Assembly (NCBI GenBank): GCA_964602805.1 | Contig: CAZRSJ010000001.1 | Span: 59,727 to 123,726, forward strand | From: an uncultured Chromatiales bacterium | GTDB lineage: Bacteria > Pseudomonadota > Gammaproteobacteria > Poriferisulfidales > Poriferisulfidaceae | Reading direction: 5' to 3' | Length of the DNA stretch: 64,000 nt | In this document: in pieces, positions 1,663 through 53,446 of the stretch | Layout of the letters: each line of letters opens with the position of its first letter | Position numbering within the stretch: position 1 is the stretch's first letter | Position numbers and translations under genes: made by a program | Notes under the pieces: generated by a model | Told to the model about the DNA's origin: nothing | Databases searched by the model: none | What the model saw: the letters and a program-made list of their open reading frames with translations, nothing else

Positions 1663-2352
1663 TCACTCCGGCTTGTCGTTTTCTTGATCCGTCGCTGATG
1701 TCCGGCTTCCCCAACCATGCTCAACCGCGAGCACCGCTGCCGCGACCCGGGAAGTCACTTCCAATTTTCGCAAAATCGCCTTGACGTGAACCTTGACCGT
1801 GCCCTCGGAAATACCCAGGTTGTCTCCGATTCCACGATTGCTCAGGCCTTCTGCCAGCAGAGCCAGAATCTCTCTCTCCCGAGGGGTCAAAACATCAAAT
1901 GGACTCCCATCGCTTGCTGGAGGTTCCGGCTCCCGGCCCTGTACCACCCGGGCCAGCGCCGGTGTCAGGCTCGGCGCCACCACGGTCTCGCCCGCAACAG
2001 TGGAGCGCAACGCCATCACCAAGGCATCCGGCTCCATATCTTTCAGTAAATAGCCGCTGGCCCCGGAGCGCAGCGCTTCAATCAGATCTTGCTCCTCGTC
2101 ACTCGTGGTCAGCATCACCACCGGCGGACATTCCTCGCTCTCACGCAACCTCCGGAGGATTTCGAGCCCGTCAGTCTGTGGCAAACGCAAGTCCAGCAGC
2201 ACGATGTCCGGACGGCGCTTGGCGACCGCCGCATAACCGGACTCGGCATCCCCCACTGAATCCAATACTTTCAACCCATGGCGTTCCAGCAAGCCCTGCA
2301 GACCCTCTCGAAACAGGGTATGGTCATCGATGACGGTGACTGTCAGTGTCAT
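1663..2352 (-). CDS. NarL/FixJ-family response regulator (REC domain plus LuxR-type HTH)
   Basis: 229 aa. REC-domain motifs (VIDDH...DLRLP...DGLE) and C-terminal LuxR HTH (LTPREREILALLAEGLSNRGIGDNLGISEGTVKVHVKAILRKL). 4-nt overlap with the upstream kinase gene. Confidence 0.9.
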   Translation of the reverse strand: MTLTVTVIDDHTLFREGLQGLLERHGLKVLDSVGDAESGYAAVAKRRPDIVLLDLRLPQTDGLEILRRLRESEECPPVVMLTTSDEEQDLIEALRSGASGYLLKDMEPDALVMALRSTVAGETVVAPSLTPALARVVQGREPEPPASDGSPFDVLTPREREILALLAEGLSNRGIGDNLGISEGTVKVHVKAILRKLEVTSRVAAAVLAVEHGWGSRTSATDQENDKPE

Positions 2353-3272
2353 GCCGCCTTTGCCCTCTCCGGCATGGCCTTGAACTCAAGCAATATCCGC
2401 ACGCCCTCCTCCGGCTCGCTCTCCACCCGCAATCGCCCTCCCAAGCGCATCGCCCGGTCCTGCAACAGGCTCAATCCGATATGGGTCCCTCCTCCTTCCT
2501 CCGGCGGATTCGCAAACCCCACTCCGTCGTCTTCCACCAACACCCGGCAGTTCTCACTCTCCGCATCGCCTGAAATCAACACACGCACTGTACTGGCTTG
2601 GGCATGCTTGCGCGCATTGGCCAGAGCTTCCTGCACAATGCGCACAATTTGCAACTCGTGCTCAGCCGGCAGTTTCATATTCTCCCACTGAGTCTGCAGC
2701 AGCACGCGAACGTCCGGACAATCCCGCCGGAAGCGTTCCACCGTCCTTTCAATGGCCGGCAGCAGGCCTGCTTCACTGATCGGCACGCGAAAATGCGCAA
2801 TCAGTTCCCGCAACTCGATGTTGGCTTCTTCCAGGCTCTCCTCGATCCTTTCGAGTTCTTCCCAGGTTCGTTCTTCGTCTCCTTGATGCAAGGTTTCGTC
2901 CAGCACCCGTACTTGCATCTTGATTCCGGCTAGGGTCTGCGCTAAGGAATCATGCAGTTCCCCGGACAACCGGGTGCGTTCCTTCATGGCGGTAATGTCG
3001 CTGAATTCCTGCAACTGCTCTTCCGTATCCCGCGACAGGGTCTGAACCATTTCGGCAAGCACATTCAAGTCGGTCGCAAGTTCTGCGAAATCGCCTTTCG
3101 GCGGCACCGGCACTCTCGCCGACAGTTCACCCCCGCGCATGCGGAATACCCATTGCCGGATGGCTTCGTAAGGAGCCAGCCTTTGCCGGTACACCCAAAT
3201 CAAGAATGCGGCGGCGGCTCCCAGAAGCAGACCGGATACGATAAATCCTGGCGTGCCCAATCCAAGCATCAT
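2349..3272 (-). CDS. NarX/DegS-type sensor histidine kinase (HisKA_3 plus HATPase) with a single N-terminal TM helix and no periplasmic domain
   Basis: 307 aa. One N-terminal hydrophobic helix, then HAMP-like linker, H-box (SGELHDSLAQTL), N/G boxes (QEALANARKHA, DDGVGF). Overlaps neighbours by 4 nt on each side. Confidence 0.85.
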   Translation of the reverse strand: MMLGLGTPGFIVSGLLLGAAAAFLIWVYRQRLAPYEAIRQWVFRMRGGELSARVPVPPKGDFAELATDLNVLAEMVQTLSRDTEEQLQEFSDITAMKERTRLSGELHDSLAQTLAGIKMQVRVLDETLHQGDEERTWEELERIEESLEEANIELRELIAHFRVPISEAGLLPAIERTVERFRRDCPDVRVLLQTQWENMKLPAEHELQIVRIVQEALANARKHAQASTVRVLISGDAESENCRVLVEDDGVGFANPPEEGGGTHIGLSLLQDRAMRLGGRLRVESEPEEGVRILLEFKAMPERAKAA

Positions 3273-3589
3273 TTTTTCGGCGGCACGTAAGCAGGATCGT
3301 TCGGGTTGAGAAAAATGAACTGCTTCTCGCCCGGCTCAAGCTCCACGAAATCCACGGTCATGCCCCGTGCCAGGGCCAGGCTGTCGGCCCCGACCACCAC
3401 CGGGACCTTGCGCAGGCTGAACCTTTGATCACCCTCGTGGCTCTCCACGTCAAACCCCATCGCATACTGGAAACTGCCGTCTTCAAGCTTGCGTACGGCC
3501 AAACGCAAGGCCACACCTTCCTCGTTTTCCGGCAATTGCTCACGGATTTGGTCTGCCGCTTGTTCAGTCAGCGTCAAAAAATCAGGCAC
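3269..3589 (-). CDS. IscA/HesB-like (A-type carrier fold) protein lacking all three conserved cysteines
   Basis: 106 aa. Aligns along its length to IscA/ErpA (LRLAVRK..., VVVGADSL..L.G..VDFVE...F.F.NPN), but the Cys positions are Asp/Gly and the C-terminal CGCG motif is absent. First gene of a three-gene operon with the kinase and regulator. Confidence 0.55.
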   Translation of the reverse strand: MPDFLTLTEQAADQIREQLPENEEGVALRLAVRKLEDGSFQYAMGFDVESHEGDQRFSLRKVPVVVGADSLALARGMTVDFVELEPGEKQFIFLNPNDPAYVPPKK

Positions 3590-3730
3590 TTTATCTCTCT
3601 AACCCTTCCAAGGAATATCCATAATACAGGGATAATCATTTTCCATAGAGGCCAAGTTTCCTCGATGCCAAATAGAAATTAGGTTTTAGGTAAATTAGGA
3701 CTTGCCTCACTTCTGTAATTCACGCAACTA

Positions 3731-4378
3731 CTAGCCTGTTTCTTTGTGCTTCCTAGGGCAGAGTAGGTTATTCAAGCCAGAGGCAGCTATCTTCATCGTT
3801 TTATTCAAGGGGCGAAAGGTATGCAAAAACGAAATGAGAATTCTCCATTCCTTCTCATCGGAGAATCTCTCTGGTTTACAGAAATATTTTCGGCGCAAAT
3901 CGTCTGATGGGCTAGGAAGGCTATCTAGTTCCATGGTTTTGGTGTATTTCACCTCTCCCCACTCAACCGAAGTGATGCCTGGAGGCAGAGCATTCCTCAA
4001 GCGTTTCTCAAATTCACCGGGATCCTGCAACACACAGTAGTACTCACCAAATTTTTTCGTCGCCTCGACATCAGCACTAAAGCTCATCATGAACGCGGGT
4101 TGTATTGGCCTATCGTCGCTAACGTCACGGTGAAGTATCCCGCCTATTTTGTAACTGCCTACGCCTTCCATCACATCACCGACCTGGCCTTCTTTCTTTC
4201 GATAAAAGATAGGCGACCTAAACCAAAATATTCCTCTCGCATAAGAATCGACCGTTTTGTTATCGATCCCTCGATATAAACAGGCTGGCAATACTTCCAC
4301 AATTGATAAAGTTCGGTCGCGAGACAAACGAATATGTTCTTGCGTTATTATTTCATGTGCGGATAATTTTTGTCTCAA
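3731..4378 (-). CDS. Hypothetical protein (215 aa), no recognisable family; low-GC gene
   Basis: Long ORF with codon usage typical of AT-rich cargo DNA. No motif recognised by eye. Confidence 0.45.
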   Translation of the reverse strand: MRQKLSAHEIITQEHIRLSRDRTLSIVEVLPACLYRGIDNKTVDSYARGIFWFRSPIFYRKKEGQVGDVMEGVGSYKIGGILHRDVSDDRPIQPAFMMSFSADVEATKKFGEYYCVLQDPGEFEKRLRNALPPGITSVEWGEVKYTKTMELDSLPSPSDDLRRKYFCKPERFSDEKEWRILISFLHTFRPLNKTMKIAASGLNNLLCPRKHKETG

Positions 4379-4502
4379 TATCTACTTCGTCTGCCATACC
4401 CTAGGCTTACAAGGCCATACCTGCCCATAAAATCTAAAAGACCGATTTTATGCATCATCAAGTTGAATCCAGACCCTAAACTCAGCCAGCGAAGTGTTGC
4501 AG

Positions 4503-4637
4503 ATGGAATTGCGGTTACTTGACGAGCACGAGACCAAGGTCAAGATCTTGCGGGAGGCCCTGGCCGAAGGCGAACAATCCGGTCCTGCGGTCCCGTTTGA
4601 CTTCCACGCATTCATTGCTAGCATGACATCTTCCTAA
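4503..4637 (+). pseudogene. parD-family antitoxin remnant (C-terminal 44 codons only; N-terminal RHH DNA-binding half missing)
   Basis: Translation MELRLLDEHETKVKILREALAEGEQSGPAVPFDFHAFIASMTSS matches the conserved C-terminal half of ParD antitoxins (SASEV..LRLLEEHEAKL.ALR.ALIEGE.SG....FDFDAF). Upstream frame is closed by a TGA at 4474-4476. Confidence 0.5.
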
Positions 4638-4694
4638 GACATCCATATCAAGCGACACGCTATCTTCTATGGCCCAAGCGTATCTTGAAAAAAT

Positions 4695-5411
4695 TTGGCT
4701 TTACGCTGTGAGGCACTTTCCATGAACCTGCATCCGTTATTTTTCATAGCCCTTCCACTACCAGTTCACTACTTGCACAGAGCGATAGCCCTGATCCTAG
4801 CCATAGTAACGGTTTGTGCCGTTTCCTTTGTTCACGCCGAAACGGATTTTGAAAATCTGATTCGAGCCATGGAAGCTGACGAAGTGGCTTTGATGGAAAT
4901 TACCGGAACTGGCGGATCGACAGGGGATGTTCTAGAAGGCTATTTAGTCAATAAGACCTCAACCACCAAGAGACTGGACGTCCGGTTTGACTCACCCGTC
5001 TTTCTCTTGAACAGTGGTTCAGGACAGGACATGGTGGCAACACAAATTTTTGAGAAGGGCGGGGGATACTACATTGCGCCCGAAAATGACGGACGCCCTT
5101 TCATTCGCTTGAAGCCGAAAGAGAAATTGCCAATCTCGCTCTTCGCATACTGTGTCGACTTTGGCAAAGATAATCCGTCCAGAAACGATTTACTCACGGT
5201 CGGAAGGCTCCCTACACTTCTACTGAAAATCATGAGCAAGATATCCGCATACGAAGAACTCCCGCCTGATACCAGTACCATGAAGGGAGCGCAAGCCGCC
5301 TTGTGGTCAGCGCAAGGTGTCAATCTTGATGAGATTAAAAAGAAATTCAAACTTGATGCTGCAGATGAAGCAAAAATGCATCAAATTCTCGAAACCCTAG
5401 AACCCCATTGA
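4695..5411 (+). CDS. Hypothetical secreted/membrane-anchored protein (238 aa; an alternative start MNLHP at 4722 is possible)
   Basis: N-terminal hydrophobic segment (LILAIVTVCAVSFVHA) consistent with a signal peptide or anchor. No recognisable family. Low-GC. Confidence 0.45.
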   Translation: MALRCEALSMNLHPLFFIALPLPVHYLHRAIALILAIVTVCAVSFVHAETDFENLIRAMEADEVALMEITGTGGSTGDVLEGYLVNKTSTTKRLDVRFDSPVFLLNSGSGQDMVATQIFEKGGGYYIAPENDGRPFIRLKPKEKLPISLFAYCVDFGKDNPSRNDLLTVGRLPTLLLKIMSKISAYEELPPDTSTMKGAQAALWSAQGVNLDEIKKKFKLDAADEAKMHQILETLEPH

Positions 5412-5445
5412 TTCATACATGTCGTCGCACAAACACTCAATTCGC

Positions 5446-5598
5446 GTGCCCATCCAGTATTCGGCAAGATTACAATTATCCGAAGAGCACGAAGCTAAAG
5501 TCGAAGCCCTGCGCAACGTCCTGATCGAAGGCGAGCGGTCCGGCCCCCCAACATCCTTCGATTTCGACGCTTTCATAGCGGACAAGAGATCTTCCTAG
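5446..5598 (+). pseudogene. Second, divergent parD-family antitoxin remnant (C-terminal ~46 codons, no ATG, weak RBS)
   Basis: Frame open from 5401. Translation ...QYSARLQLSEEHEAKVEALRNVLIEGERSGPPTSFDFDAFIADKRSS matches the ParD C-terminal consensus. About 55% identical to the first remnant at protein level. Confidence 0.45.
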
Positions 5599-5746
5599 AC
5601 AGGTATGCGGAGACTGGATCGGGAAAAGGCGGGTCCAAACTTGACGCACGGCAGTATTCGTCCATAATTGGAGACGGCGATTGAGGCGGCCGCTGGTTTA
5701 GTGTGGCGGCGTGGTCCTGATGGCCAGCGAATATAACTAAAAATCC

Positions 5747-7102
5747 ATGAGGAAACTTATGAGAAAAACTACTTTTTGCACGGGGCTGGCAATGGCAGCT
5801 GCGATGGCGTGGACCGTTCCGGCACTTGCGGATGAAACCTGCATGTCGCCGTACATTGCCAAGATTCAAGGCCAGGAAGATTACGTCTATGTCTGGACCT
5901 TGGGCGTGGAAGGCATGGGGGACGAGCAGGACAAGCTGGTCACCATCGACACCAACCCCGAATCCAAAACCTATGGCCAAGTAGTCAGCGTACTGTCCGT
6001 CGGTGGGCGCAACGAAGCGCACCATTCCGGACTGTCTGACGACCGTCATTACCTGTGGGCTGGCGGACTGGACTCGAGCAAGATCTTCGTGTTCGACATC
6101 CACAGCAACCCGCGGCAGCCGAAACTGCACAAGGTCATCACCGACTTCGTCGAGAAGTCCGGCGGACTGGTCGGCCCGCACACCTTCTTTGCTCTACCCG
6201 GGCGGATGATGATTACGGCGCTGTCCAACAACGTCGATCACGGCGGACGCACCGGCGTGGCTGAATACAACAACGATGGCGAATTCGTGGCGTCCCATTG
6301 GATGCCGACGGACGAAGACCTTCGCGGCGCGGTCAAGACCGGCCAGCACGCCGACGGCTACGGCTACGACCTCCGGGTCAAGGCTGAAAGCAACGTGATG
6401 CTGACCTCGTCCTTCACCGGCTGGTCCAACTACATGATGGACTTCGGCCAGATGCTGCAGGACAGTGCTGCTATGCAGCGCTTCGGCAACACCATGGTGG
6501 TGTGGGACATGCATGCCCGCAAGCCGCTCAAGGTGCTGGACGTGCCGGGGGCTCCACTGGAGATCCGTTGCGCCTGGGGTCCGGATAACCGCTACTGCTT
6601 CACCACGACGGCGCTGACCTCTCAGGTCTGGCTCCTGTACGAGGATGAAGCCGGCGAATGGCACGGCAAGGCTGTCGCCGATGTCGGTGTCCCTTCTGAA
6701 ATTCCCCTGCCGGTCGACATTTCCATTACGGCCGACGACACGGGGCTGTGGATCAACACCTTCATGGACGGCAAGACCCGCTTCTTCGATATTTCCGACC
6801 CGCATGCGCCCAAGCAGGTCTTCGAGGAAGTGATCGGAAGCCAGGTCAACATGGTCTCCCAGAGTTGGGACGGCGACCGCGTGTACTTCTCCAGCTCCCT
6901 GCTGAATAACTGGGACAAGACGGGTGAAGCAGACGAGCAGTACGTCAAGCTCTACCACTGGGATGGCGAAGCACTCGCTCATCAGTGGACGGTTGATTTC
7001 TATGCCGAGCAGTTGGGCCGTTCGCACCAGATGCGTTTCGGTGCCTATGCCCTGTATGGGAAGCGCCCGGATGCCGACACCCGGACCGCGATGGCCGAAT
7101 AA
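5747..7102 (+). CDS. mtoX: Selenium-binding protein SBP56 family / methanethiol oxidase, with signal peptide
   Basis: 451 aa. Signal peptide (AMAAAMAWTVPALA). Conserved SBP56 blocks throughout (HHSGLSDDRHYLWAGGLDSSKIFVFD, GPHTFFALPG, WDMHARKP, NRYCFTT, DGDRVYFSSSLLNNWD). RBS GAGGAAAC upstream. Confidence 0.9.
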   Translation: MRKLMRKTTFCTGLAMAAAMAWTVPALADETCMSPYIAKIQGQEDYVYVWTLGVEGMGDEQDKLVTIDTNPESKTYGQVVSVLSVGGRNEAHHSGLSDDRHYLWAGGLDSSKIFVFDIHSNPRQPKLHKVITDFVEKSGGLVGPHTFFALPGRMMITALSNNVDHGGRTGVAEYNNDGEFVASHWMPTDEDLRGAVKTGQHADGYGYDLRVKAESNVMLTSSFTGWSNYMMDFGQMLQDSAAMQRFGNTMVVWDMHARKPLKVLDVPGAPLEIRCAWGPDNRYCFTTTALTSQVWLLYEDEAGEWHGKAVADVGVPSEIPLPVDISITADDTGLWINTFMDGKTRFFDISDPHAPKQVFEEVIGSQVNMVSQSWDGDRVYFSSSLLNNWDKTGEADEQYVKLYHWDGEALAHQWTVDFYAEQLGRSHQMRFGAYALYGKRPDADTRTAMAE

Positions 7103-51825: not shown

Positions 51826-52473
51826 TTACACAGAAGGCAACTCGAAAACTCGCCTAGCTATAAAAAGTCCGACAATTTTTGCCTTTGGAAAACATCTAGA
51901 TAGAACTGTTTCCATTGCTTGGAAGTGCGCTCCCGTCGTAAGAACATCATCAACAATGGCGATATAGTTGGGAATAGGCGTTAATAGGCTATTGTCTACA
52001 TCATAACGCTCCTGATATTGTTGAGGAGTAGGCCGTTTTTTTGTTTCGTGAGCGGCTTTGTAACTTCTTTGCTGGATGATGATTTCTCGAATATCCAACG
52101 GATGGTCTGGCCTAATGGTATACAACATTTTTGTCAGCCTGTCATCGTAAAGAGGATGTTTTTTAGCTTTCGATGGTGGAATCGGCACAAAAGTCAACTG
52201 CTCCAGTTGATTCTGAGTTAGGGCAACTCGAAATGCAGTTGCCACTTGTCTGATTGCTCGTTCTTTATGAGGCCAGTCTGGTGATTTTTTTCGGTCCAAT
52301 GATTTTTTAAAGTTTAAAATTAAACTATTGGTTTTACTGTAGGCATAACCTTGCTCTGCGGTGTATTCACCAAGAAAATAACAATTGTCAGTGTCTTCCA
52401 GATAATAATAATCTGACCGTGTCAGATCATCAATCTTGGTGAAGTGCGGGGGTAAGATGCTTTCGAATATCAT
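51826..52473 (-). CDS. Type-I phosphoribosyltransferase-domain protein (ComF-like PRTase; ShosT-like toxin candidate)
   Basis: C-terminal PRPP-binding motif IAIVDDVLTTGAHF. Start uncertain: the track ORF starts at 52509; MIFES at 52473 used here. Overlaps the upstream DprA-like gene by 44-80 nt. Confidence 0.6.
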   Translation of the reverse strand: MIFESILPPHFTKIDDLTRSDYYYLEDTDNCYFLGEYTAEQGYAYSKTNSLILNFKKSLDRKKSPDWPHKERAIRQVATAFRVALTQNQLEQLTFVPIPPSKAKKHPLYDDRLTKMLYTIRPDHPLDIREIIIQQRSYKAAHETKKRPTPQQYQERYDVDNSLLTPIPNYIAIVDDVLTTGAHFQAMETVLSRCFPKAKIVGLFIARRVFELPSV

Positions 52474-53338
52474 CGTAATCTCGAACTCGCAGGGCCCCTT
52501 TAGCGGCAAATTTTTCTGGCCAAGTTAGGCGCGAATTGCGAAAGCAACTATTAAGGATGAATAGTTTTCGCTTTTGGCGCAGTGCCGCACGTGCCTGAAA
52601 TAACGTTCCAGATGTTTCACTGGCCTCGACAATAATAGTTGCCTCCGTGAGTGCGGACATCGTTACATTACGTTCGGGAAAGAAAGTACGGTTATATCGG
52701 TAGTCCTGAGACTCATAACGCTGAAGCGGAACCTGGCTGATGACCAGAAAATGCTCTGAGATATAGCGCTGCAACTCAGCATTATCTTTCGGGTAGAAAT
52801 GCGAAAGTGGAGTACCTATTACTGCGATAGTTTTCCCTCCCCCTTCAATAGCGGTTGTATGGGCCACTTTGTCAATGCCAGCCGCTAACCCAGAAACAAT
52901 TGTGAATCCGTTTTGTACTAGTTGTTTCACTAGCTTTCGTGCTCGCGCGAGCCCTTCCTTAGTAGGGCGTCTAGTCCCCACTACCGCAACAGAGGGCGAT
53001 GCTACTAGATCCCACCAACCTTGATAGTACAGAAGTTCGACAGGATATGCTGCGTCTCTCAATTTTTTCGGATATTCTGCTCCACCGTATACACGCACCC
53101 CGAAATCATGAATACCGGCCTCTTCAAACTTTTGCTTTACGGAAACTGCACACTCATGAGCTTGCTCTTCCGGTACGAAACTTGATGGAATGCTACCGGG
53201 ATGACGAGCAAATTCTTCTGCCAACGATTTAAAAGTCGTTTCAGGCCTTGACCATAGCGCTTCATATGCCCCCATCTCATGAAATGGTGAAATGGCTGAA
53301 AGCCCATAATTCGCCCTTTCGAGTTCAAGATTAGACAT
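52430..53338 (-). CDS. DprA/Smf-family (SLOG Rossmann) protein lacking the C-terminal winged helix (ShosA-like antitoxin candidate)
   Basis: DprA Rossmann-core motifs YP..L......P.LLY..G......SPSVAVVGTRRPT..G...A..L...L...G..IVSGLAAGIDKVAHTTAIEGGGKTIAVIGT. ATG at 53336-53338 with GGGGAGA RBS. The track ORF begins 5 codons earlier at a TTG. Confidence 0.6.
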   Translation of the reverse strand: MSNLELERANYGLSAISPFHEMGAYEALWSRPETTFKSLAEEFARHPGSIPSSFVPEEQAHECAVSVKQKFEEAGIHDFGVRVYGGAEYPKKLRDAAYPVELLYYQGWWDLVASPSVAVVGTRRPTKEGLARARKLVKQLVQNGFTIVSGLAAGIDKVAHTTAIEGGGKTIAVIGTPLSHFYPKDNAELQRYISEHFLVISQVPLQRYESQDYRYNRTFFPERNVTMSALTEATIIVEASETSGTLFQARAALRQKRKLFILNSCFRNSRLTWPEKFAAKGALRVRDYDDIRKHLTPALHQD

Positions 53339-53446
53339 TACACATCTCCCCAATGAACATCATGTTGTCATGACAGTTCATACAATTTAAAAGTTTAGTA
53401 GTAGCATCTTTTTGGCAGAGATTCTACCAACTAAAAAGTTTTGAAC

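Follow-up and report, generated by a model that had tools for sequence, protein, structure and literature searches.

Thioester adhesin domains serve as tools for covalent protein capture and, to our knowledge, are currently described as a Gram-positive feature. In these thioester domains (TEDs) the thioester cysteine sits in a [YFL]CΦζ motif, the glutamine of a central helical TQxxΦW motif is not bonded, and the bonded glutamine is carried by a weak ΦQζΦΦ motif in a downstream β region (Walden et al., PMC4450167; the cysteine motif is also defined in PMC8092201). DUF2971 proteins are predicted ADP-ribosyltransferases (ARTs) in which motif I is poorly conserved; they have a strictly conserved tyrosine and an ExE motif. 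They are related to AbiGi and DarT, and the neighbouring Lsan_2474 family carries R-SxS-ExE, often with CxS in place of SxS (PMC12522546). One DUF2971 protein, Aristaios, was shown experimentally to be a single-gene antiphage system with an abortive-infection phenotype (PMC11381338). Here we analysed an AT-rich islet in 64,000 nucleotides (nt) of DNA from an uncultured Chromatiales bacterium (assembly GCA_964602805.1, contig CAZRSJ010000001.1, positions 59,727 to 123,726 of the forward strand). This whole stretch is called the window and all positions are given in it. The islet lies between a hesB-like gene and mtoX and holds two open reading frames (ORFs), ORF-A and ORF-B, of which ORF-B is the more interesting. 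Our overall explanation, which we believe about as much as we doubt, is that the islet was acquired at a small hotspot, that ORF-A would be a defence ART and that ORF-B would carry a thioester-type domain.

The G+C content (GC) of the islet is 0.467, compared with 0.576 for the whole window, and lies 3.4 standard deviations under the mean of the window's 2-kb segments. In 400-nt segments GC dips from 0.57-0.62 to 0.43-0.48 over about positions 3600-5600. A preliminary description, made by reading the letters and their ORFs, had placed an AT-rich islet at 3590-5740, between a two-component operon and mtoX. The GC drop is real and the ORF list and a Pfam scan agree with this position, but the right boundary falls at about 5633 and not at 5740. 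In blastn comparisons with relatives, the conserved flanks stop at 3589-3637 and restart at 5633-5638. On the left, the HesB/IscA-like gene heads a histidine kinase/response regulator operon and adjoins the gap in all relatives. On the right, mtoX is followed by SCO1, then a MauG-type cytochrome c peroxidase, then a TlpA-like redoxin (Table 1). MtoX of the window is 97-98% identical to that of the closest Candidatus Porisulfidus genomes (L017-L020). The Candidatus Porisulfidus metagenome-assembled genomes are those of sulfur-oxidising sponge symbionts, including TsSOB, and the window belongs to this lineage.

Ten window proteins were mapped onto the loci of relatives (designated by L numbers) with tblastn and blastn. 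The gap between the hesB-like gene and mtoX was empty, at about 124 nt, in L017, L019, L022 and L030, whose MtoX proteins are 98%, 97%, 94% and 84% identical to that of the window. The other relatives held different cargo. The gap contains intact parDE alone in L023, a 121-aa (amino acid) ORF with parDE in L020, and a 476-aa and a 271-aa gene followed by parDE in L018. In L024 it holds a TIR-like ORF, an IS110-like transposase and a 150-aa ORF, all assigned by eye. L007 carries a 180-aa gene, a pentapeptide-repeat gene, ORF-A, ParD, ORF-B and ParD, whilst L015 carries ParD, a 369-aa gene, BrnTA, a 436-aa gene and ORF-A. The L107 gap begins with an insertion sequence (IS) fragment, an N-terminally truncated ORF-B, two small ORFs and BrnTA, and continues with two ORFs that look AbiEi/AbiEii-like by eye and the end of a parE. 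With the gap empty in four relatives and otherwise filled elsewhere, the islet is thus accessory rather than core DNA. This presence/absence mapping, which the preliminary description had proposed as a way of defining the boundaries, sets them at 3637-5632. It also speaks against the two being housekeeping genes kept at this position in all relatives, which the preliminary description had named as its refutation; four Porisulfidus genomes have nothing there.

Several of these cargoes are of interest in their own right. In L018 (6812-9061; MtoX 98%) the 476-aa and 271-aa genes are co-oriented and lie upstream of the intact parDE, the 271-aa product begins with a Cys-rich, zinc-ribbon-like motif, and the pair is possibly a two-gene defence system. 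In L024 (6844-9469) the TIR-like ORF is 290 aa long with the start 'FVSYSHDSKNH', and the IS110-like transposase is 362 aa long, again as judged by eye. In L107 (1-5182; also L097-L100) the IS-type transposase fragment abuts a 178-aa ORF-B copy that has no signal peptide. BrnT and BrnA of L107 are recognised by Pfam, and its AbiEi/AbiEii-like ORFs, seen by eye, are 264 aa and 358 aa long.

The site is a small hotspot with parDE as its usual resident and cargo that turns over. It resembles defence-island and integration hotspots in its fixed core flanks, variable content and low GC, and its contents include parDE, BrnTA, a TIR-like gene with IS110 and unfamiliar gene pairs. It differs from them in that the islet is only 2 kb and shows no detectable integrase, tRNA, att repeats or target-site duplication. 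The ORF list of the islet contained no recombinase, no flanking direct repeats were found, and a search of the islet and its junctions for an integrase, att repeats and a target duplication returned none, which weighs against the proposed acquisition; an IS110-like gene is seen only in L024, by eye. We infer that cargo is exchanged by homologous recombination, with either the core flanks or parDE itself as the shared sequence. The islet would have been acquired horizontally, at a recombination hotspot between the hesB-like/two-component operon and the mtoX operon.

Toxin-antitoxin remnants are interleaved with the two genes, as the preliminary description had noticed, and consist of two ParD fragments recognised by PF03693 and a 25-residue ParE stub. 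As reference we took the ParD (78 aa) and ParE (96 aa) that are intact at this site in L023. A complete ParD antitoxin has about 80 aa, with a ribbon-helix-helix DNA-binding part at the N-terminus and a toxin-binding part at the C-terminus, and a toxin gene comes after it; a ParE toxin has about 96 aa and its gene directly follows parD. For the first copy, ParD1, the ORF spans 4494-4637 (+) and residues 27-78 are in frame at 4479-4634, with 77% identity to L023 ParD. A tblastn search with the full L023 ParD placed an N-terminal piece, 'TDFMHHQVES', in another frame. Compared with the 73-aa ParD of L007, which is the closest relative, ParD1 has two stops and a 1-nt deletion. Homology of the second copy, ParD2, is limited to ParD residues 35-78, at 5464-5595 (tblastn, 77% identity to L023 ParD), and the middle of its N-terminal half is missing. 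Both copies match only positions 35-77 of the 81 in the PF03693 profile, the C-terminal half, and in the PF03693/TIGR02606 family test their NCBIfam ParD scores of 33.5 and 29.9 fall below the cut-off of 46.2. The ParE stub corresponds to residues 1-25 of 96, has no start codon and abuts the start of ORF-B; in blastn, similarity to the parDE of L018, L020 and L023 ends at 4709-4717. No parE follows ParD2, where about 35 nt stand in the place in which L018, L020 and L023 hold the whole gene. No toxin is left anywhere in the islet and neither parDE module is intact. ORF-B now occupies the former place of the first parE.

The two copies differ in their relation to the resident modules. ParD2 shares 78-82% nt identity with the resident parD of L018, L020 and L023, whereas ParD1 with the ParE stub shares 69-73% with the copies in the same three loci, and the ParD1 and ParD2 proteins are 59% identical. 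Since ParD2 is nearer the resident parD and ParD1 is more divergent, two different parDE modules met here. Both have decayed, one by a frameshift in parD and the cutting of parE to 25 codons, the other by an internal deletion in parD and the loss of parE. Likeness to ParDE type II modules is thus confined to the ParD C-terminal half of PF03693 and to a stub matching the N-terminus of the L018/L020/L023 ParE. Unlike in such modules, the toxin is gone and both antitoxins are damaged, one by a frameshift and one by an internal deletion.

In contrast to these remnants, ORF-A and ORF-B have intact frames over the full family length, with no internal stops. Both had been read as longer proteins in the preliminary description. 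Its 215-aa minus-strand protein at 3731..4378 exists as an open frame, but homologues begin 3-4 residues ahead of a conserved 'P..LYR', which corresponds to the GTG at 4300, and the start was therefore corrected to that codon. One gene call in Logan (metagenome) yields the same 189-aa product. Its 238-aa plus-strand protein at 4695..5411 likewise exists as a frame open from the TTG at 4695 and does have the N-terminal signal it had been given, with a predicted cut between …AVSFVHA and ETD, but the start is better placed at the ATG at 4722, giving 229 aa; the nine extra codons overlap the ParE stub. The weak promoter candidate of ORF-A falls within the supposed 5' extension of the 215-aa reading. 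Five promoter-like sites were counted in the region, close to the 2.9 expected from shuffles.

Against the L007 orthologues, the ratio of non-synonymous to synonymous substitution rates (dN/dS) was 0.18 for ORF-A (synonymous rate, dS, 0.15) and 0.22 for ORF-B (dS 0.29). The core comparison of MtoX, kinase and HesB-like protein gave 0.05-0.11. Selection on both genes is purifying, somewhat looser than on core genes. This bears on the possibility that the islet is a gene graveyard, in which ORF-A and ORF-B are decaying remnants without current function. The neighbouring ParD and ParE are clearly degraded, the L107 copy of ORF-B is N-terminally truncated beside an IS fragment and some gene callers split ORF-A to a 146-aa product, all of which would suit a graveyard. 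The full-length frames, the low dN/dS at dS values of 0.15-0.29 and the retention of all family motifs argue the other way, and we regard a graveyard as very improbable.

ORF-A and ORF-B are adjacent and divergently transcribed in both the window and L007, which raised the idea of one two-gene system, such as an effector with an exported partner, regulated by the ParD fragments. Their distributions are independent, however. ORF-A occurs without ORF-B in L013, L015, L102 and L103, and ORF-B without ORF-A in L097, L101, L107, L111 and L112. Since each is found without the other, the two are independent cargo and not one system. This largely refutes a joint system, the supposed ParD regulators are truncated or frameshifted, and we find the idea scarcely credible. 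Membership of ORF-B in the mtoX/SCO1/MauG/TlpA periplasmic copper-thiol operon was also considered and rejected, as the operon is intact without ORF-B in close relatives. Neither protein found a match among plasmids by tblastn. Genes of the bufferin/copper-binding RiPP (ribosomally synthesised and post-translationally modified peptide) type were seen less than 10 kb from relatives of ORF-A or ORF-B in two metagenome contigs: a BufA1 precursor gene in L007 (20468-20690), and MbnB_TglH_ChrH and HvfC_N genes in L013 (4303-5995).

The preliminary description had recognised no family in either protein, and indeed none reaches threshold in Pfam, NCBIfam or PADLOC. A weak NCBIfam match to HvfX lay within the signal peptide and a weak match to DUF6117 was judged spurious; both were set aside. 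The sensitive profile and structure searches which that description had proposed did supply family leads, weak and under threshold, and were less productive on the structural side, as described below for each protein.

For ORF-A, searching 5.8 billion proteins with the single sequence yielded five relatives and a profile search 45, mostly about 185 aa long and largely metagenomic. None of these 45 homologues has a Pfam domain in the ORF-A region, and one has an added N-terminal helix-turn-helix (HTH) domain. ORF-A matches phrog_13198, of function not known, at E = 1.3e-5 in PHROGs, a collection without a curated cut-off. When the family members were scanned one by one against Pfam and PADLOC, DUF2971 matched 12 of the 45 (best E = 0.009), AbiGi matched three, and three models of the PADLOC candidate system PDC-S31 matched 15, 6 and 4 (best E = 1.9e-4); all three groups are predicted ARTs. 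ORF-A of the window itself has no match to DUF2971 (PF11185) at E <= 10 and none to PDC-S31.

The conserved residues of the family follow an ART pattern. R36 is present in 38 of 39 members, position 99 is Ser in 37 and Cys in 7 and is followed by F100 and S101, Y145 is kept in 45/45, E175 in 42 (with two further Asp) and E177 in 44/44. These fit ART motifs I (H/R), II (Tyr or SxS) and III (ExE), as assigned by order and pattern and not by structure-based alignment. Structure matches, weak evidence in themselves, were enriched in ART folds, which have a split β-sheet core that binds NAD+. Some members (among P0023, P0028, P0037, P0045 and P0047) are 260-310 aa long; P0023 has an N-terminal HTH_3 domain and P0037 a C-terminal extension of about 100 aa, and one family member weakly matches AbiEii. 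Such fusions could indicate regulation of the stand-alone protein.

Four contexts of ORF-A homologues were read beyond the Porisulfidus hotspot, and they place the family in restriction-modification, DISARM-like, TIR and AAA-ATPase surroundings. In L102 the homologue overlaps a DUF499 gene by 4 nt, and the DUF1156/DUF499 cluster adjoins ThsB-TIR. In L103 it lies between type I restriction-modification genes and DrmE_C/NERD (helicase) genes, in L013 it follows AAA_21 and SLFN-AlbA_2 genes, and in L015 it is near BrnTA and ParD. No neighbour was conserved between these contexts and ORF-A is thus a stand-alone gene.

Taken together, the motifs, profile matches and contexts suggest that ORF-A belongs to the DUF2971/AbiGi-type ART group, as a distant representative of minimal size, and that it is a candidate defence gene. 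An ART fold seems to us somewhat probable, and a role in defence falls a little short of an even chance. ORF-A would be a small cytoplasmic enzyme which, once infection is sensed, uses NAD+ to ADP-ribosylate a nucleic-acid or protein target; this modification would stop phage replication, as single-gene Aristaios does. With Aristaios, DUF2971, Lsan_2474 and AbiGi it shares a cytoplasmic, stand-alone nature, defence contexts, weak but consistent profile matches, an invariant Tyr, ExE, and R and [S/C]xS motifs. Aristaios, by contrast, is lactococcal, a DUF2971/PF11185 protein, and 316 aa long compared with about 185 aa in the ORF-A family, which forms a tight family of its own, under every curated threshold and with no Pfam assignment. 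ORF-A further differs from DarT, the DNA ADP-ribosyltransferase toxin of DarTG, in having no adjacent macrodomain (DarG-like) antitoxin or other conserved partner.

Several results weigh against a defence ART. The ORF-A family reaches no curated model's threshold. Foldseek found nothing significant in the PDB for the ORF-A model, and the family profile gave no meaningful match among PDB sequences. No partner antitoxin or sensor is evident, and no relatives were found in phage or plasmid sequences (tblastn) or in IMG/VR (alignment scan). ORF-A might instead be an inactive ART-like scaffold, an antitoxin-type partner or an accessory gene at the head of the hesB-like/kinase/regulator operon. Pfam does label AbiGi an antitoxin, the family is known from sequence only with weak structural evidence, and in the window, L009 and L015 the hesB-like gene directly follows ORF-A in the same orientation. 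However, that operon is present without ORF-A in L017, L019, L022, L023 and L030, two genes intervene between ORF-A and the hesB-like gene in L007, and distant homologues sit in defence islands with no such operon adjacent. The essentially invariant putative catalytic Y and ExE argue for an active site rather than a scaffold. We consider this group of alternatives distinctly unlikely.

ORF-B has a broader family. A word-indexed search found five relatives, whereas an exhaustive profile search of 1.84 billion representatives found at least 316 at E <= 1e-3, with 151 at E <= 1e-10. Most are about 200 aa long and begin with a signal peptide or have a lipobox-like Cys. Longer proteins combine the domain with Ser/Thr kinase, TPR, ankyrin, Sel1, FGE-sulfatase or Lcl_C/Fib_succ_major domains, and distant members have no conserved neighbours. 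To judge from these searches, the family is undescribed and without a curated model. The preliminary description had suggested that such genes often carry defence or toxin functions, which proved half right. ORF-A, with homologues in defence islands and weak DUF2971/AbiGi/PDC-S31 similarity, is a credible defence or toxin-type gene. ORF-B shows no such sign and belongs to an exported or lipoprotein-type family with thioester-domain-like motifs.

The likeness of ORF-B to TEDs lies in two motifs. Y143-C144-V-D fits the cysteine motif [YFL]CΦζ; among 154 aligned family sequences position 144 is Cys in 135 and Ser in 10, and position 143 is Tyr or Phe in 137. A-Q191-A-A-L-W195 fits the central motif, with Q191 and W195 in 132/132 and A193 in 129, and the residue before Q191 in the family is A, I, S or V, not T. 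The Pfam TED model (PF08341) matches 30 of 72 family members, with a best E of 2.7e-4, compared with 6 for the next family. These matches always cover profile positions 1-73 and fall on the stretch between the conserved Cys and Trp, both included. In a PDB search with the ORF-B family profile, 4c0z_A, the N-terminal TED of the pilus adhesin Cpa, was retrieved at E = 1.1, aligning AYCFNLTKHFPSKSD with AYCVDFGKDNPSRND and TQNAIW with AQAALW. The other PDB matches were only RxLR-effector repeats with a 'Q.Wl..g' pattern.

The cysteine of this motif is coupled to a glutamine. Q102 is the only other highly conserved Gln in the family and lies in G-Q-[ND]-M-Φ, 42 residues upstream of C144. Among 133 representatives in which both positions are aligned, 120 have both residues, 8 neither, 2 the Cys only and 3 the Gln only, an association with a Fisher p of 3.6e-9 that ignores phylogeny, which counts against it, though the losses look independent. 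The eight sequences that lack both share only 21-40% identity among themselves, and in each case the nearest relatives retain the Cys and the Gln; P0167 (Ser, Thr), for instance, has 65% identity to P0182 (Cys, Gln). This indicates that joint loss happened several times. Of ten control near-invariant positions, nine gave p >= 0.02 (0.02 to 1) and N151, next to the cysteine motif, gave 2.6e-4. Q191 and W195 never vary. This covariation shows C144 and Q102 to be functionally coupled, as far as alignments reach; it is evidence of coupling, not of a bond. Ser144 variants such as P0134, P0153, P0155, P0164, P0167, P0169 and P0171 are also without Gln102 but keep QxAΦW and the remaining fold signature. 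They are either ready-made negative controls or a sub-class of other function. A Cys-His hydrolase was tried as another explanation for the conserved cysteine and rejected, as no His is conserved in the family.

ORF-B may nevertheless be an ordinary periplasmic or outer-membrane protein without covalent chemistry, such as a binding module, lipoprotein or immunity protein against a secreted toxin, with its TED likeness a coincidence of two short motifs. Much of the evidence that weighs against a thioester domain would be expected of such a protein. All TED matches are under the Pfam cut-off (12-18 bits for PF08341, where 22 is required), TED_2 (PF20610) matches only one of 72 members, and no thioester-domain model is among the NCBIfam matches listed for the family. 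Aligning the family with the pLS20 TED by hhalign gave a probability of 15% and only the cysteine motif was aligned; a PDB search with the pLS20 thioester domain itself retrieved no other TEDs. The structure model of ORF-B has a predicted confidence (pLDDT) of 47 and its fold search therefore carries no meaning. The canonical downstream Gln-bearing β region is absent, as ORF-B ends 34 residues past W195 in a tail that is predicted to be helical and is poorly conserved. The gene lies amongst defence and toxin-antitoxin genes, surroundings in which immunity genes are often met, and this would suit an immunity protein in particular.

Other observations fit an ordinary protein poorly. No other Pfam family is matched nearly as often as TED, whose matches are always on the same segment, and the joint loss of the near-invariant Cys144 and Gln102 in at least six unrelated lineages is not predicted by a purely structural role. 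For an immunity protein, fusions to kinase, TPR, ankyrin, Sel1 and FGE-sulfatase domains would be unusual and no cognate toxin lies nearby. We consider a protein without covalent chemistry rather unlikely.

A non-canonical thioester domain is a plausible reading of ORF-B, and since the canonical Gln region is absent, a thioester would need a non-canonical partner. That a real internal thioester forms is a tentative proposal, on which we lean somewhat towards doubt. Exported ORF-B would be a compact thioester-type domain in which Cys144 bonds internally with a Gln, most likely Gln102, on the upstream side, whereas Gram-positive TEDs have theirs downstream. An amine of an envelope or host target would next be attacked by the thioester, giving covalent attachment. 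The more specific proposal, a previously unrecognised class of internal-thioester domain in Gram-negative (diderm) bacteria, formed by a compact exported module of about 190 aa with Q102 (GQNM) supplied from an upstream β-hairpin, is more doubtful and is offered as a candidate.

Compared with the Gram-positive TEDs of SfbI, Cpa (PDB 4C0Z), TIE proteins and pLS20 p34, ORF-B is similarly exported, has [YFL]CΦζ then K..P, has a helical QxxΦW following at the right relative position, and has a Gln coupled to the Cys. It differs in its Gram-negative host and in being a stand-alone mature protein of about 190 aa, with no stalk domains and no LPXTG. The spacing from Cys to QxxΦW is 47 residues, compared with 76 in 4C0Z, and the candidate Gln upstream of the Cys would be permuted relative to every described TED.

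Table 1. Features of the islet and its flanks, in window positions
Feature	Coordinates	Strand	Basis and remarks
Variable low-GC islet, hesB-like/mtoX intergenic gap	3637..5632		GC and blastn flank ends
ORF-A, 189 aa, cytoplasmic	3731..4300	-	Homologue starts; open frame reaches TTG 4378 (215 aa)
ORF-A promoter candidate, sigma-70-like	4347..4376	-	Consensus scan, 9/12 plus TG extension; weak
ParD1 pseudogene	4441..4637	+	Pfam PF03693, E = 1.8e-12; tblastn with L023 ParD
ORF-B promoter candidate, sigma-70-like	4597..4624	+	TTGACT, 16-nt spacer, TAGCAT, TG extension; weak; inside ParD1
ParE stub	4645..4719	+	tblastn with intact L023 ParE, 48% identity, E = 4e-4
ORF-B, 229 aa, signal peptide	4722..5411	+	ATG start; identical database protein P0006
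ParD2 remnant, 59-aa ORF	5419..5598	+	Pfam PF03693, E = 5.9e-13
Response regulator	1663-2352	-	ORF list and Pfam scan
Histidine kinase	2349-3272	-	ORF list and Pfam scan
HesB/IscA-like gene, 106 aa, left flanking core gene	3269..3589	-	Pfam PF01521, E = 4.4e-8
mtoX promoter candidate	5641..5668	+	TTGACG, 16-nt spacer, CATAAT; 10/12 consensus matches; outside the islet
mtoX, SBP56-family, right flanking core gene	5747..7102	+	Pfam PF05694, E = 4.3e-47

The flanks show features of their own. The mtoX promoter candidate sits in a right-flank block that is kept in every relative, empty sites included. This block of about 110 nt 5' of mtoX (window 5633-5746; L017 9890-10000) has 90-98% nt identity in most Porisulfidus relatives and 75% in the most distant, L030. 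As it is kept whatever lies upstream, regulation of mtoX appears to be untouched by turnover of the islet. The HesB/IscA-like protein has zero cysteines, making Fe-S binding in the manner of IscA, SufA or ErpA impossible, and lies under the NCBIfam cut-offs for all three. Elsewhere in the window, a second low-GC islet at 51826-53353 (-) has the lowest 2-kb GC, 0.455. It holds two overlapping genes, both read by eye: one encodes 227 aa and shows a phosphoribosyltransferase-like IAIVDDVLTTGAHF motif, the other encodes a DprA/Smf-like protein of 307 aa. The pair looks like a nucleotide-centred conflict or defence module.

The locus shows the turnover of a tiny defence/accessory hotspot in an uncultured sponge symbiont whose genomes are reduced, to about 1.6-2 Mb. 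ORF-A would add a very small and well-delimited subfamily to the poorly understood DUF2971/AbiGi group, whose predicted ARTs are increasingly recognised as phage-defence systems of one gene, and its size would make it a convenient minimal model. ORF-B offers a concrete residue pair, C144/Q102, for mutation. If the thioester proposal is true, the fusions to ankyrin, TPR, Sel1 and kinase domains would mark its domain as a general covalent 'warhead', and a compact Gram-negative TED with another Cys-Gln topology would widen both the biology of symbiont-host and envelope attachment and the protein-engineering toolbox. In the sponge symbiont itself, ORF-B could then bond the cell covalently to the host matrix.

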